DNA from: a virus
Lineage: Duplodnaviria > Heunggongvirae > Uroviricota > Caudoviricetes
IMG/VR virus record: IMGVR_UViG_2713897055_000006
Strand: one strand, 5' to 3'
DNA: 18,908 nucleotides
Shown here: one piece after another, positions 15,001 through 18,000 of the stretch
Layout: every line of letters starts with the position of its first letter
Position numbering within the stretch: position 1 is the first letter of the stretch
Made by a program: the position numbers

Positions 15001-18000
15001 GCGGATGTGCTCATGCCTGATTTTCATGAATCAACTCCGATGCATTTGGTGTGTTAGCCTTGAATCCAACAGGTAAGCCGTCGGTTGGATTCGGGTAAAT
15101 ATCAGGCCGGAGTTCATGAGGTGTAACCTCGAAATTCGTTACTTCAGCAACACGTAATGCTTTTTCAGGGCTGAATCTTTCATAGCCCCCCAGCACTCGA
15201 CTTACATGCACCTGAGATAAACCCGTTAGCTTCCCAAACTGTAGCTGGGTGATATGTTTCTCTTTTAAATAGTCTCTTAAGTTCATAGCCAACCTTCTAC
15301 GTTATGCCTCGAGCAAATATTAGTCCCGCTAATTTTAAAGATCAATAGCCAGACTATCTTTGATAATATTGGTAAAACAAATAAACTCTATGTATGAAAA
15401 AAAACACGCGAAGTGATTGCAACTCCAGAAGCGAGCAAGAATTTAAAAGCCGCATGGAATGCAAGAAAAAAAGAGCTGAAGCTGACTCAAGAGCTGGCGG
15501 CTGAGTTGTTGGGATTCGAATCTCAAGGCACCGTTAGCCAGTATCTGAACGGCAAGATACCGGTAAATACCGACGCTGCGCTAAAATTTGCGGCTCTGTT
15601 AAAGGTAAAACCAGAGGACATTCGAGAAGACCTTAAAGACTTAATGAATTATGTAAGATCATCAGATACTTATGATGATAACTTTTCAGGCAAAGGATGG
15701 AGGCTGGTCAATGAAGAACAGGCAGAGTTACTTAACCTCTTCGAGATTCTACCTGCGTCAGAAAAAGCCAAACTCCTTAACCAGCTACGTGGACTAAACA
15801 AGCTCTACGAGGAAGCCTTCGAGAACATGCTGGCACTAAAGAAACGTAACCAGTAGCCACCGCTCACTACCCCATCCACAACAAAAAAACCGACGTCTTA
15901 GTCGGTTTTTTTGTGCCATAACTTCTGCAAATCAGCTGTATAACTAATATTTTTCCCTTGAAAAAACATTTACATAGTTACCAAATCAAAAATATCATAC
16001 GCCATACTGTTGACTTAAAATATCCGCGTTACTAATATTTCTATCAAGAACAGCACGGCGCTGTAGGTTTTAGTTCCGCCACCCGGCGTTAAGGGGAAAT
16101 GAGGTCAGCATGGATACTATCGAGCTTGGCAACAACGAATCTCTGGTGTACGGCGTGTTTCCCAACCAGGACGGCACATTCACCGCGATGACGTATACCA
16201 AAAGCAAAACGTTTAAAACCGAAAATGGTGCCCGTCGCTGGCTGGAAAGAAACTCAGGTGAGTGATATGGATTTCGACACAATCATGGAAAAGGATTACG
16301 AAGAATACTTCGATGGTCTTGCCGAAGGCGAAGAAGCTCTCAGCTTCAGTGAATTTAAACAGGCGCTTTCCAGTTCGGGAAAATCTAACGGCTGATAAGC
16401 GAAACAGCACCGCGAGGAATCAGTATGCAGAAACGAGAACCCGTCATCATCGCGCCAGACTATACCGATGATGAACTTTATGAGTGGATGCGCCAGAAAA
16501 TTAATGCAGTGCAGGATCTGAAATGGGCCAATGAAGCCAGGACTAAGCAGGCTGAAAATCTGTCCGCTCTGGAGCAGGATATCACCAGGCTGGAAAAAGC
16601 AGCGGCATTAAGCATTGCCAGAATGGTTACATACCCACGTTAATAGCTAACCAACGAGGCTAATAATGGAATTTAAAGATTTACCAATGCCATTCCAGGA
16701 AATGGCAGCGAATGTGGTTCGCTCTCAACTGGCGACTCTTGACCTGAGTACTGTAGAAAAGGAAACCATCGATACTATATCCGGTAACGTGCGTCGTGCC
16801 TTTATAGGTCTGTATGAAGAGAAGCGCCTATTCGGCGGACAGAATTCGCCTGAAAACAAGAATCAAGCAAATGATGAGAAGCTGAAACACATTATCGCCT
16901 TACTTTTGGAAGACGCAAAACGTCTACAGCAACTGGAACCAAATGCAGGCACAGAGGCCCGCATTTGGATTGCCATGAAATCACTCAAATGTGAAAGCAG
17001 TGATTATTTCAAAACAACAATTAAAACTACTCAACTTTCGGGAGAGCTACTGAAGAAATTGCCATAAGAGCATGGTCTTTCTCTTGTTCTGCAAGATGAG
17101 CATTAATACCTGGTATGGTTTTTTCAAATTTATCTATCTGTTGAATAACAACTTCGCGGTATACGTTTGTTTTTGTACCACCAAGCGCAGCCGTTAATGC
17201 AGAAAGCATATTTAGTATCATATCAGTGCGATATGAAAGAATCCTGATAGCTTCATCTTGTTTTTCAATAATAGATTGCAGGGCCTCAATTTGCTTTTTA
17301 TCCATTTCACCCTCCTGAGGGTTGGTAATTAAGGAGTTCTCCACGGGTCAGGTGGAGTGCGTGCGCCGGACACGGGTGAGCATCCGGCACTGACAGTTTA
17401 CTGAAAGGATATGTCCCTGAAAAGTCAGGGCATAACGCGAAAGCGCACGGCGAAATTGGTCTCTCTGTACGGTGTCGTTAAATTTAGTTCGACCGTGCGC
17501 TTCCGGTTGTGGCAATCCGCGAAATGGCGCGGCGGTAAGTATGGCGGGGTTATTCCTTCCCCGCTGAGGACACCGGGTTGTCAGGTTGACCATACGCTTA
17601 AGTGACAACCCCGCTGCAACGCCCTCTGTTATCAATTTTCTGGTGACGTTTGGCGGTATCAGTTTTACTCCGTGACTGCTCTGCCGCCCTTTTTAAAGTG
17701 AATTTTGTGATGTGGTGAATGCGGCTGAGCGCACGCGGAACAGTTAAAACCAAAAACAGTGTTATGGGTGGATTCTCTGTATCCGGCGTTAATTGTTAAC
17801 TGGTTAACGTCACCTGGAGGCACCAGGCACTGCATCACAAAATTCATTGTTGAGGACGCGATAATGAAAACGTTATTACCAAACGTTAATACGTCTGAAG
17901 GTTGTTTTGAAATTGGTGTCACTATCAGTAACCCAGTATTTACTGAAGATGCCATTAACAAGAGAAAACAAGAACGGGAGCTATTAAATAAAATATGCAT

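Follow-up and report, generated by a model that had tools for sequence, protein, structure and literature searches.

The stretch of DNA analyzed here (the window, 18,908 nt; IMG/VR virus record IMGVR_UViG_2713897055_000006) carries a GC-rich, non-coding segment at 17345-17636, directly 5′ of the gene for the small RNA DicF. DicF was identified by a match to the Rfam family RF00039 (17638-17689, + strand, 76.7 bits, E = 1e-15) and its sequence is identical to that of DicF in Escherichia coli K-12. DicB (PF05358) is encoded 3′ of DicF at 17864-18052, and ydfA, ydfB and ydfC are located upstream of the segment in the same order as in E. coli 042. The ydfABC-dicF-dicB operon order is intact except for one inserted block of two genes, and no promoter was predicted in the region upstream of ydfA. 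GC content reaches 0.51-0.55 over 17300-17674 vs. 0.33-0.46 in the flanks, in agreement with the preliminary description of this DNA, which had reported a GC-rich and ORF-poor segment upstream of DicF. Comparison with the K-12 ydfC-dicF interval, proposed there as a check, gave an end-to-end match with about 92% identity. Its orthologue in K-12 is thus the unannotated ydfC-dicF spacer of 340 nt, and megablast gave matches to the segment in 4316 of the 5426 complete genomes of E. coli, at 9007 places. Since the K-12 spacer itself is 340 nt long, the length of the segment is normal for the locus and the earlier impression that it was longer than expected does not hold. We consider, with a probability of about 0.7, that the segment makes up the structured and untranslated 5′ portion of the RNA from which DicF is processed, within the early-left (dicB) operon of a Qin-like prophage. 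The locus itself is ordinary, being the front part of the already known 190-nt DicF precursor.

The inserted block is established just after ydfC. K-12 and phage 640R1 are contiguous at this point (...GCTAA directly followed by GGTTGGTAATTAAGGAG...), while about 658 bp separate the two halves in the window. The inserted genes encode proteins of 133 aa (16666-17067, + strand) and 92 aa (17027-17305, − strand), both of which had no match in Pfam and matched PHROGs of unknown function only. According to one explanation, the left part of the segment would mainly provide the minus-strand 92-aa gene with a promoter and a 5′ leader, which appears very unlikely. The start of this gene (17305) and its ribosome-binding site adjoin the insertion junction at 17318, so that its promoter must be situated in, or to the right of, 17319-17400, and in another locus (L018) a different minus-strand gene is inserted at the same junction. 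However, no promoter-like site for the gene was found on the minus strand between 17306 and 17771. Moreover, the sequence of the segment is kept in K-12 and in thousands of genomes that have no inserted gene, which argues that it did not evolve for the 92-aa gene. The preliminary description had the segment also form the 5′ leader region of that gene, which is part of the insertion. A coding function, past or present, has an even smaller claim and next to no probability in our opinion. Two ORFs do exist, one of 64 aa (17411-17605, + strand), which is annotated in one RefSeq genome, E. coli 042 (WP_014639149.1), and matches PHROG 8854 (E = 1e-35), and one of 95 aa (17348-17635, − strand), whose stop-free stretch is often 80-100 aa long. 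Neither of them is conserved. The ATG of the plus-strand ORF is present in 6 and absent in 46 of the 52 distinct Qin-type copies, length differences of the segment are not multiples of three and a common CCCC/CCCCC indel falls inside the ORFs. Additionally, the minus-strand ORF has no PHROG or Pfam match, PGAP has placed no gene in the interval in nearly all genomes and substitutions track base pairing, not codons. Start-codon loss and frame-breaking indels led us to reject the coding reading; they confirm the earlier view that no convincing ORF is present and show that the region is not a decayed protein-coding gene, the alternative that had been named with it.

Table 1. Features in and around the segment, in window coordinates.
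Feature	Position	Strand	Basis
Two-gene insertion, outside the RNA element; splits the ancestral ydfC-dicF spacer	16661-17318	.	Comparison with K-12 and 640R1
H1 hairpin region (inner stem GCCGGA 17365-17370/TCCGGC 17383-17388)	17347-17394	+	Inverted repeat, MFE folds
H2 hairpin (CCCUGA-AAAG-UCAGGG, 17415-17430)	17410-17434	+	Inverted repeat; lineage comparison
H3, long imperfect hairpin, putative RNase III substrate	17438-17505	+	Arms, fold, lineage comparison
Core domain, four-way junction, 115 nt	17506-17620	+	RNAalifold, pair counts, covariance model
P0 helix	17506-17513/17613-17620	+	
P1 helix	17517-17521/17528-17532	+	
P2a helix	17534-17536/17572-17574	+	
P2 helix, sequence and length variable	17545-17549/17559-17563	+	
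P3 helix	17575-17583/17603-17611	+	
Loop-loop pseudoknot helix (GUAUGG with CCAUAC in the P3 loop)	17539-17544/17590-17595	+	
Linker with RNase E processing site	17621-17637	+	MFE of 17500-17692; K-12 annotation; published RNase E dependence
DicF sRNA, intrinsic terminator and U-tract	17638-17694	+	RF00039; identity to K-12

Hairpins, core domain and processing

Three hairpins precede the core domain (Table 1). The inner stem of H1 is the GCCGGA/TCCGGC hairpin already noticed in the preliminary description. H1 occurs in Qin-type flanks only and is missing from a common variant (35 loci), cdtI, F1055 and P1; its stem is invariant and its loop variable (diversity of 0.14 per site), hence it shows no covariation. 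The H2 arms, CCCTGA (17415-17420) and TCAGGG (17425-17430), had been placed at 17418-17436, so the hairpin is present but at shifted positions, and a conserved CAUAAC spacer follows it. In each lambdoid lineage examined, the corresponding position is occupied by an equivalent of H2 with an altered stem and an A-rich loop (GCCUG...CAGGC; CCUGG-GAAGAGA-CCAGG; GCUGG-GAAAGA-CCAGC). The outer inverted repeat thought to bracket the region does exist (GCGTGCGC/GCGCACGC, 17359-17366/17729-17736), but an 8-nt repeat within 460 nt is close to chance expectation, and the bracket was rejected as a real helix because it has no comparative support and the upstream copy is missing in a common lineage. The repeat does belong to a local cluster of the 7-mer CGTGCGC, with four of its seven window copies in 17360-17735, two of which form H3.

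H3 consists of a basal stem (17438-17450/17493-17505) and a variable apical part (17451-17492). Its 13-nt arms are 92% complementary, and 12 of the 13 pairs are kept in the Qin, cdtI, F1055 and L042 lineages with almost every position exchanged, while diversity amounts to 0.02-0.03 differences per site in the arms vs. 0.20 in the apical part. The piece that contains H2 and H3 (17405-17510) folds with a z of −3.1, none of 200 shuffles being as good, and the plus strand of the whole segment folds at −113.0 kcal/mol vs. −101.5 ± 5.2 kcal/mol after shuffling (z = −2.2, a modest value). Support for the segment rests on comparison rather than on folding energy.

Reportedly, a 190-nt "long DicF" precursor was described for the Qin prophage of K-12 by Faubladier and colleagues in 1990. 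In K-12 the spacer has no internal promoter, RNase III makes the 5′ end of the stable 190-nt species and RNase E trims it to the 53-nt DicF sRNA; the 190-nt form accumulates in stationary phase, builds up when RNase E is inactivated and is lost without RNase III (Ragunathan et al. 2023, PMC10448788). Hfq enrichment 5′ of dicF has been published as well. Counting back from the DicF end (17689 − 190 + 1) leads to 17500, within the 3′ arm of H3, a position that derives from the published 190-nt length only and not from the published numbering of the RNase III site (813/814). Because H3 is structurally conserved in four lineages and ends where the 190-nt RNA would begin, we infer that it is an RNase III substrate, in which a cut near 17500 would give the 5′ end of the 190-nt DicF. 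As this cut point is at the base of H3, the segment is divided into two parts, namely the upstream H1, H2 and H3, which are discarded, and the 115-nt core, which is the 5′ domain of the 190-nt RNA. The structured DicF precursor of the preliminary description is correct and agrees with the published RNase III and RNase E work, but only about 17500-17636 is in the stable precursor and 17345-17500 is removed at the RNase III hairpin.

The predicted fold of the core, a four-way junction with a pseudoknot, is supported by covariation. RNAalifold found the long-range helix of the core unprompted. In alignments of 78 sequences made with MAFFT and of 100 made with the covariance model, 95-96% of the cells at core pairs are paired, compared with 33-56% in controls with slid partners, and 9-18 core pairs show double changes, the shuffle statistics being inflated by the relatedness of the sequences. 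Structural covariation across homologues, the check suggested in the preliminary description, is thus present (96% paired in 100 distinct homologues, with double changes at 17-18 pairs). In a divergent sequence (L322), P3 reads GGAUCACCA/UGGUGAUCC, with four compensatory pairs in one sequence. Concerning the pseudoknot, a U-A pair becomes C-G in phage P1 and U·G in the P7 and F1055 copies; homologues were gathered partly by exact motifs of the pseudoknot strands, so the invariance of these strands is inflated in the large alignments. G·U pairs in P0 and in the pseudoknot, which would be C·A on the other strand, establish the plus strand as the functional one. Stems have 0.003-0.06 differences per site vs. 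0.15-0.20 in P2 and the apical part of H3, so that constraint follows structure. Apart from the helices, many unpaired nucleotides are invariant, among them those of J2/3, the AA bulge and, within the loop of P3, CAGGUUGA, and the P2 loops retain the motif UCCUY while the P2 stem covaries. An H-type pseudoknot between UCCUU of the P2 loop and GAGGA after P2 was also considered and rejected, as it is sterically implausible and GAGGA is missing from other lineages. The covariance model recognizes a single copy of the core in the window (160.7 bits). A search of 17250-17900 against Rfam 15 with permissive filters (E ≤ 10) gave nothing inside 17345-17636, and the cores of P1, cdtI, K-12 and 640R1 gave no Rfam match at E ≤ 0.01.

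Minimum free energy folding of the linker gave a weak hairpin (17627-17634/17641-17648) with an AU-rich loop, AUUUUC (17635-17640), at the 5′ end of DicF, and this pairing may mask the first bases of the DicF seed. Either the published K-12 work or the sequence itself shows that the operon transcript reads through ydfABC and the spacer, that RNase III cuts within the spacer to leave the stable 190-nt RNA ending at the DicF terminator, and that RNase E turns this RNA into the 53-nt DicF. Going beyond this, the 190-nt RNA would be composed of the pseudoknotted 115-nt domain, the 17-nt linker and DicF. Helix P0 would place the 5′-monophosphate end made by RNase III near the AU-rich RNase E site, and the linker, paired with the first seed bases, would yield a stable and partly masked pro-sRNA that is activated by RNase E.

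Distribution of the core and its possible roles

The core is common to Qin-like, cdtI/Stx2c-like, Salmonella and P1/P7 phages. At least ten different cassettes were found downstream of it, and a hairpin followed by a T-run occurs 30-90 nt past the core in 114 of 118 distinct downstream flanks, the core lying 12-40 nt upstream of the intrinsic terminator. In one divergent lineage (L322/L371), the 130 nt after the core contain no terminator. In cdtI, a sigma-70 promoter (2184-2211) is followed by the core (2495-2620) and then by a terminator, while in P1/P7 only about 25 nt separate the core from the predicted start of the transcript. No significant equivalent of H3 was seen in P1/P7 (11 of 13 pairs, within chance), so that RNase III entry is not universal. 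Scanning genome contigs with a 15-base motif returned almost only chance matches, in unrelated phyla.

The core is a portable module, placed just downstream of a repressor-controlled early promoter and before differing cassettes of seed plus terminator, of which DicF is one. The reading to which we commit is that, in a family of prophage sRNAs, it probably acts as a domain for biogenesis and stability. Invariant loops and bulges or a tertiary helix are not obviously required of a scaffold, so the core may do something more specific. More tentatively, the core could represent a new family of structured, autonomous RNAs that has its own function in temperate coliphages, both lambdoid and P1-like, either the loading of RNA polymerase for read-through or the licensing of cassette maturation and stability. 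If this were true, phages could swap sRNA seeds behind a constant domain, and DicF would be its best-known passenger.

Other roles have been weighed against the same observations. The boxB-like character attributed to H2 in the preliminary description is reflected in a short GC stem with covariation, an A-rich loop and a fixed place in the early-left leaders of all lambdoid lineages examined, but H2 has no boxA partner and no fixed pentaloop. Its interpretation as the boxB of an N-type nut site, with the segment as an N-dependent antitermination site, is highly improbable. A boxA-like CGCUCUUUA (≤1 mismatch) is missing from the segment and from its flanks, since the window has just two such sequences with one mismatch, at 3457 and 10946, and the H2 loop varies from 4 to 14 nt across lineages vs. 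a GNRA-like pentaloop. The nut site was rejected for lack of boxA and for this variable loop length, and a "boxA-like" GUGCUCUC just before the core in cdtI-type phages proved to belong to H3, as its 3′ arm. By annotation only, no N-type gene exists between repressor and exonuclease in the near-identical locus of E. coli 042, which speaks against the nut site and would suit an antiterminator that acts in cis. HK022 put RNA brings about terminator read-through via the zinc-binding domain of the RNA polymerase beta′ subunit. A core of this kind would fold on the nascent early transcript and stay with RNA polymerase, which could then pass the DicF terminator and those further on to reach dicB, ydfD and the recombination genes, with the sRNA as a by-product. 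The arrangement in cdtI (a strong promoter right behind the cI terminator, with the core in its leader) and in P1/P7 (the core right behind the C1-controlled Pban, with a strong terminator between it and the tRNAs, tciABC and ban) favors such a role, as do the terminators downstream of the core with essential early genes beyond them, and the binding of a protein or of the polymerase would be in keeping with invariant loops and a tertiary fold. We nevertheless regard it as unlikely. Homology to put was rejected, since the covariance model of the core, run with filters off over the HK022 immunity region (22000-33000), had no match at putL or putR (best 5.1-7.3 bits, E = 1.5-8.6), and a 115-nt four-way junction contrasts with the two stem-loops of put (about 70 nt). 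In Qin-type prophages, moreover, a distance of about 0.8-1.5 kb separates the core from the promoter. The predominant species in K-12 is the terminated ydfABC-dicF transcript, and the read-through form accumulates only with RNase E inactive (PMC10448788), a behavior that does not suggest efficient antitermination. Comparably improbable is an autonomous RNA that binds a ligand or protein, be it for riboswitch-like control of the terminator or as a decoy or sponge in trans, with a secondary link to the sRNA. The compact junction, the loop-loop helix, the many invariant unpaired nucleotides, the retention of UCCUY over a covarying stem, the stability and stationary-phase accumulation of the 190-nt form and the short distance to the terminator, as with aptamers, are all consistent with it. 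On the other hand, by inspection no alternative pairing is conserved between the core and the very different terminators, the core matches no riboswitch or ribozyme in Rfam and no candidate ligand or partner is known. Specifically, an antiterminator formed by GGCGGUA of the core and the 3′ arm of the terminator was discarded, because the likeness of GGCGG to the DicF terminator arm and the complementarity it gives are not kept in the P1, F1055 and GGUGG cassettes, and because its GGU is used in P2a or in the pseudoknot.

Significance and relation to known systems

As regards the locus, textbook DicF biogenesis is confirmed and nothing changes there. A by-product is a structural model for the 190-nt DicF species, long known but never explained, in which a hairpin for the entry of RNase III is combined with a conserved, pseudoknotted domain, an RNase E site near the new 5′ end and a partly masked seed. 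The DicF literature surveyed maps the ends and the nuclease dependence of these RNAs; neither a conserved fold or pseudoknot nor homologues at places other than dicF loci are described in it, while upstream homology may already have been noted by Faubladier and Bouche (1994) or in the P1 genome paper. What is new consists of the fold of the core, its absence from Rfam, its sharing across phages and the variable cassettes downstream. As the domain is shared by these cassettes and by the P1 ban leader, the reason for the 190-nt intermediate becomes testable through mutation of defined helices. Uncharacterized prophage sRNAs that form a family and carry other seeds are also indicated, both for Stx phages and for about 80% of E. 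coli genomes, and PHROG 8854 and WP_014639149.1 can be flagged as spurious gene calls on a core-bearing RNA.

The closest relative is the K-12 spacer, which like the segment is located between ydfC and dicF-dicB and has an identical DicF, the same hairpin at the H3 site and the same AU-rich RNase E site; the window differs in the insertion just after ydfC. The "dicF-like region" of P1/P7 (AF234172), in the leader of the C1-controlled ban operon, harbors the same core, with an identity of 77-83% across some 97 nt. Compensatory changes are seen in its P3 and P2 helices and in the pseudoknot, and a strong intrinsic terminator follows the core. The sequence after that core, however, is not DicF and has no RF00039 match, and tRNA genes and ban are located downstream. 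HK022 putL and putR are likewise structured RNAs in the leader of a repressor-controlled early operon, upstream of terminators and with no evident N gene, but they share no sequence or structure match with the core, which has a loop-loop helix. Finally, as with sRNAs derived from 3′UTRs or from within operons (MicL, SroC; PMC9438474), DicF is cut by RNase E from a longer transcript that ends at the sRNA terminator, and upstream structure defines the cleavage. Unlike in those sRNAs, the upstream structure of DicF is far more conserved than the seed and has tertiary pairing, an RNase III step comes first and the leader is reused with different seeds in unrelated phages.

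Setting and extent of the segment upstream of DicF

The segment at 17345-17636 lies directly 5' of DicF (17638-17689, plus strand; Rfam, 76.7 bits) and has a GC content of 0.51-0.55 vs. 0.33-0.46 in both flanks, as the preliminary description of a GC-rich element had indicated. The three inverted repeats noticed there were all recovered, with coordinates slightly shifted. The whole segment folds modestly better than shuffled sequences on the plus strand (z -2.2), and the piece from H2 to H3 shows a clearer excess (z -3.1).

The segment can be aligned end to end with the ydfC-dicF spacer of E. 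coli K-12, which carries no annotation; since that spacer is itself 340 nt, the segment's length, earlier thought greater than expected, is normal. Of 5426 complete E. coli genomes, 4316 gave Megablast matches to it (as many as eight copies in one genome), and annotation over these matches was almost always empty. The spacer sits immediately 3' of ydfC in K-12 and phage 640R1, and relative to them the window carries ~658 bp inserted between ...GCTAA and GGTTGG... (16661-17318), encoding two overlapping, convergent genes. The minus-strand gene, whose leader the segment had been suggested to form, is therefore a later arrival, and a search of the segment gave no promoter-like site for it. The viral contig L018 bears a different minus-strand gene at this junction, which thus looks like a moron insertion hotspot.

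No convincing ORF had been seen in the segment, and coding, including by a decayed gene, was rejected: the ATG of a 64-aa ORF occurs in only 6 of 52 distinct copies, length differences are not multiples of three, and this ORF and the minus-strand one alike contain a frequent CCCC/CCCCC indel. WP_014639149.1 is the E. coli 042 annotation of the 64-aa ORF (17411-17605, plus strand), for which a separate PHROG (8854) also exists; this single RefSeq annotation and the PHROG are probably gene-caller artefacts arising from a structured RNA. Rfam gave no match to the segment at E ≤ 10, and none to the core in four further loci.

Features of the segment and its surroundings
Feature	Position	Strand	Remarks
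H1	17347-17394	+	Qin-type only, without covariation
H2	17410-17434	+	hairpin first described as boxB-like
H3	17438-17505	+	13-bp basal stem with one A mismatch; apical part variable
H3 basal arms, Qin			CGAAAGCGCACGG/CCGTGCGCTTCCG
H3 basal arms, cdtI			GATGAGGGCATTT/AAGTGCTCTCAGC
H3 basal arms, F1055			GATGAGAGCATTG/CAGTGCTCTCTTC
H3 basal arms, L042			GATGAGAGCACTC/GAGTGCTCTCTTC
Core	17506-17620	+	115 nt
Linker between core and DicF		+	17 nt; AU-rich loop at DicF 5' end
Inverted repeat CCCTGA/TCAGGG	17415-20/17425-30
Inverted repeat GCCGGA/TCCGGC	17365-70/17383-88
Bracketing inverted repeat GCGTGCGC/GCGCACGC	17359-66/17729-36
Inserted gene, 133 aa		+	PHROG 1363, function unknown, no Pfam match
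Inserted gene, 92 aa		-	PHROG 18692, function unknown, no Pfam match

Hairpins and the pseudoknotted core

H2 and H3 are present in each lambdoid lineage examined, despite sequences that are otherwise unalignable there. In the H3 basal stem, 12 of 13 pairs are kept per lineage (Qin, cdtI, F1055 and locus L042), and by our own rough estimate a 12/13-pair match within 230 positions has a chance of ~0.015 per lineage. The H2 hairpin exists, slightly shifted from its first description; it is very unlikely to be a nut site as defined, having no boxA and no fixed pentaloop. The motif preceding H3 is copied just 3' of the terminator in lambdoid lineages (cdtI ~2690-2720; downstream flanks of loci L042, L303 and L311; window 17722-17741). 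cdtI-type phages have it as ACACAAC-GAnAAGAGCA and Qin-type ones as GAGCGCACGCGG, and in read-through transcripts this copy could take the place of the normal 5' arm as partner of the H3 3' arm.

BLAST against phages showed much broader conservation of the final 120-137 nt than of the rest of the segment. Identity in these matches is 89% in cdtI and Stx2c-type phages, 86% in a phage that its record assigns to Actinobacillus, 84% in a Salmonella phage, 83% in P7 and 77% in P1; P1-like plasmids add ~500 records, and scans of viral and metagenome collections supplied additional copies. From a MAFFT alignment of 78 distinct sequences, RNAalifold picked unprompted the long-range helix GGU-AA-GUAUGG/CCAUACGCY, and the explicit model comprised P0, P1, P2, P3 and this helix as a pseudoknot. 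On that alignment 95.4% of cells are paired vs. 33-53% with slid partners, and nine pairs are changed on both sides. Among 100 distinct sequences, aligned on a covariance model lacking the pseudoknot, 96.3% are paired vs. 33-56% in slid controls, with double changes at 17-18 pairs; the sequences are mutually related, making shuffle controls generous, and many were gathered via exact pseudoknot-strand motifs, inflating the invariance of those strands in the big alignments. The BLAST-collected phages, free of this collection bias, still keep or compensate the helix. Covariation across homologues is borne out.

P3 changes from GGGUUGUCA/UGACAACCC to GGAUCACCA/UGGUGAUCC at locus L322 and is UUGCCA/UGGCAA in P1, while P0 changes from GUUGUGGC/GCUGCAAC to GUUGUGGU/ACCACAAC in cdtI. 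The P2 hairpin is retained with variation in both sequence and length, and a pseudoknot U-A pair is replaced by C-G in P1 and by U.G in the P7 and F1055 copies. GGY (17534-36) has two possible partners, RCC (17572-74) or GCY (17596-98), the data being compatible with both; if it pairs with RCC, GUAUGG would lie in a P2 internal loop and the tertiary helix would be a loop-loop contact with P3. Read on the opposite strand, the numerous G.U pairs would be C.A, which marks the plus strand as functional. Diversity among 71 Qin-type copies follows the structural model (0.003-0.06 per site in stems, 0.15-0.20 in the apical parts of P2 and H3). The window holds no second core copy. The P2 loop (17550-17558 and homologues) retains UCCUY or CCUCC while its stem covaries and shifts in length; this pyrimidine motif resembles an anti-Shine-Dalgarno, and no partner was found for it. 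In L018 and L066, another viral contig, a deletion bounded by CGCGAAA repeats (17436-42 and 17518-24 in the window) has removed H3 and the P0 5' arm; either the core can occur without its closing helix or these copies are defective.

DicF processing and neighboring RNA elements

Ragunathan et al. (2023; PMC10448788) confirmed several points of Faubladier et al. (1990): DicF derives from the dicBp transcript, with no internal promoter; a 190-nt species, ending at the DicF terminator and with a 5' end generated by RNase III, builds up on RNase E inactivation and is missing in the rnc mutant; and RNase E is required for the 53-nt DicF (see also Bilusic et al.). For K-12 the order is thus established: RNase III generates the 190-nt RNA, and RNase E in turn produces the 53-nt form. 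The interpretation of the segment as a structured DicF precursor is supported and matches this processing. Counting 190 nt back from 17689 would put the 5' end at ~17500, and because the end of H3 coincides exactly with this expected start, H3 is taken to be the RNase III substrate. RNase III would thus enter at H3, leaving a 190-nt RNA of folded core, linker and DicF. P0 would place the 5'-monophosphate end close to the RNase E site, and in the predicted fold linker bases 17627-34 pair with the first DicF bases (17641-48); together with the core fold, these features would make the long form a stable, partly masked pro-sRNA.

The DicF-dicB spacer (17701-17841, plus strand) gives a sub-threshold STnc100 (RF02076) match of 34 bits, as do K-12, 640R1 and P1. 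Its closing helix UGAAUUUUGUGAUG/CAUCACAAAAUUCA (17700-17713/17839-17852) spans ~17709, where the 3' end of the published 72-nt DicF form, made by RNase III, would fall. A second, stronger STnc100 match (68 bits; 1-114, minus strand) is interrupted by the window start. The minus strand also carries three consecutive tRNA genes (1524-1772) and a sok antitoxin RNA (8416-8591, 117 bits), implying a hok/sok module. In cdtI (40-228, minus strand) a C4 antisense RNA (RF01695) adjoins isrK (RF01394) downstream of cro-side genes, and this pair is a further module of RNA-based regulation in these phages.

Reuse of the core across phages

The cdtI core occupies the leader of a strong promoter situated immediately past the cI terminator; the P1 and P7 copies lie directly 3' of the C1-controlled Pban, and those of vB_Apl-pPE4 and F1055 shortly 3' of the repressor gene. 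Behind it stand at least ten different cassettes of single-stranded seed plus terminator, DicF being one, and a hairpin with a T-run stands 30-90 nt past the core in 114 of 118 distinct downstream flanks. With the core constant and the cassettes varied, the core is better conserved than the sRNAs behind it. In vB_Apl-pPE4 (~2620-2720), CCCCGCCACAACAACCCAUGUUGAUUA, comprising the P0 3' arm and seed, occurs a second time past the terminator; the deposited record calls it an Actinobacillus phage, yet E. coli prophages match this region with 86% identity.

Our preferred reading is that the core is a portable domain for sRNA biogenesis and stability. Its position would also suit a put-like cis antiterminator, but a homologue of HK022 put was rejected and the terminated transcript is dominant in K-12, so we regard this role as improbable. 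That the core is an autonomous RNA binding a ligand or a protein seems similarly unlikely.

The original observation is confirmed, and the locus itself was already known; the literature searched gave no description of the conserved pseudoknotted core or its reuse across phages, which merit modest follow-up. In P1, Pban is separated from the tRNAs and ban by a strong terminator (GCCCAUCUUCGGGUGGGC and then U7). The core match in the ban leader coincides with a "dicF-like region" labeled in GenBank (2553-2654); having no RF00039 match in Rfam, this region is not DicF, and it resembles the core hairpin P3 plus a terminator.
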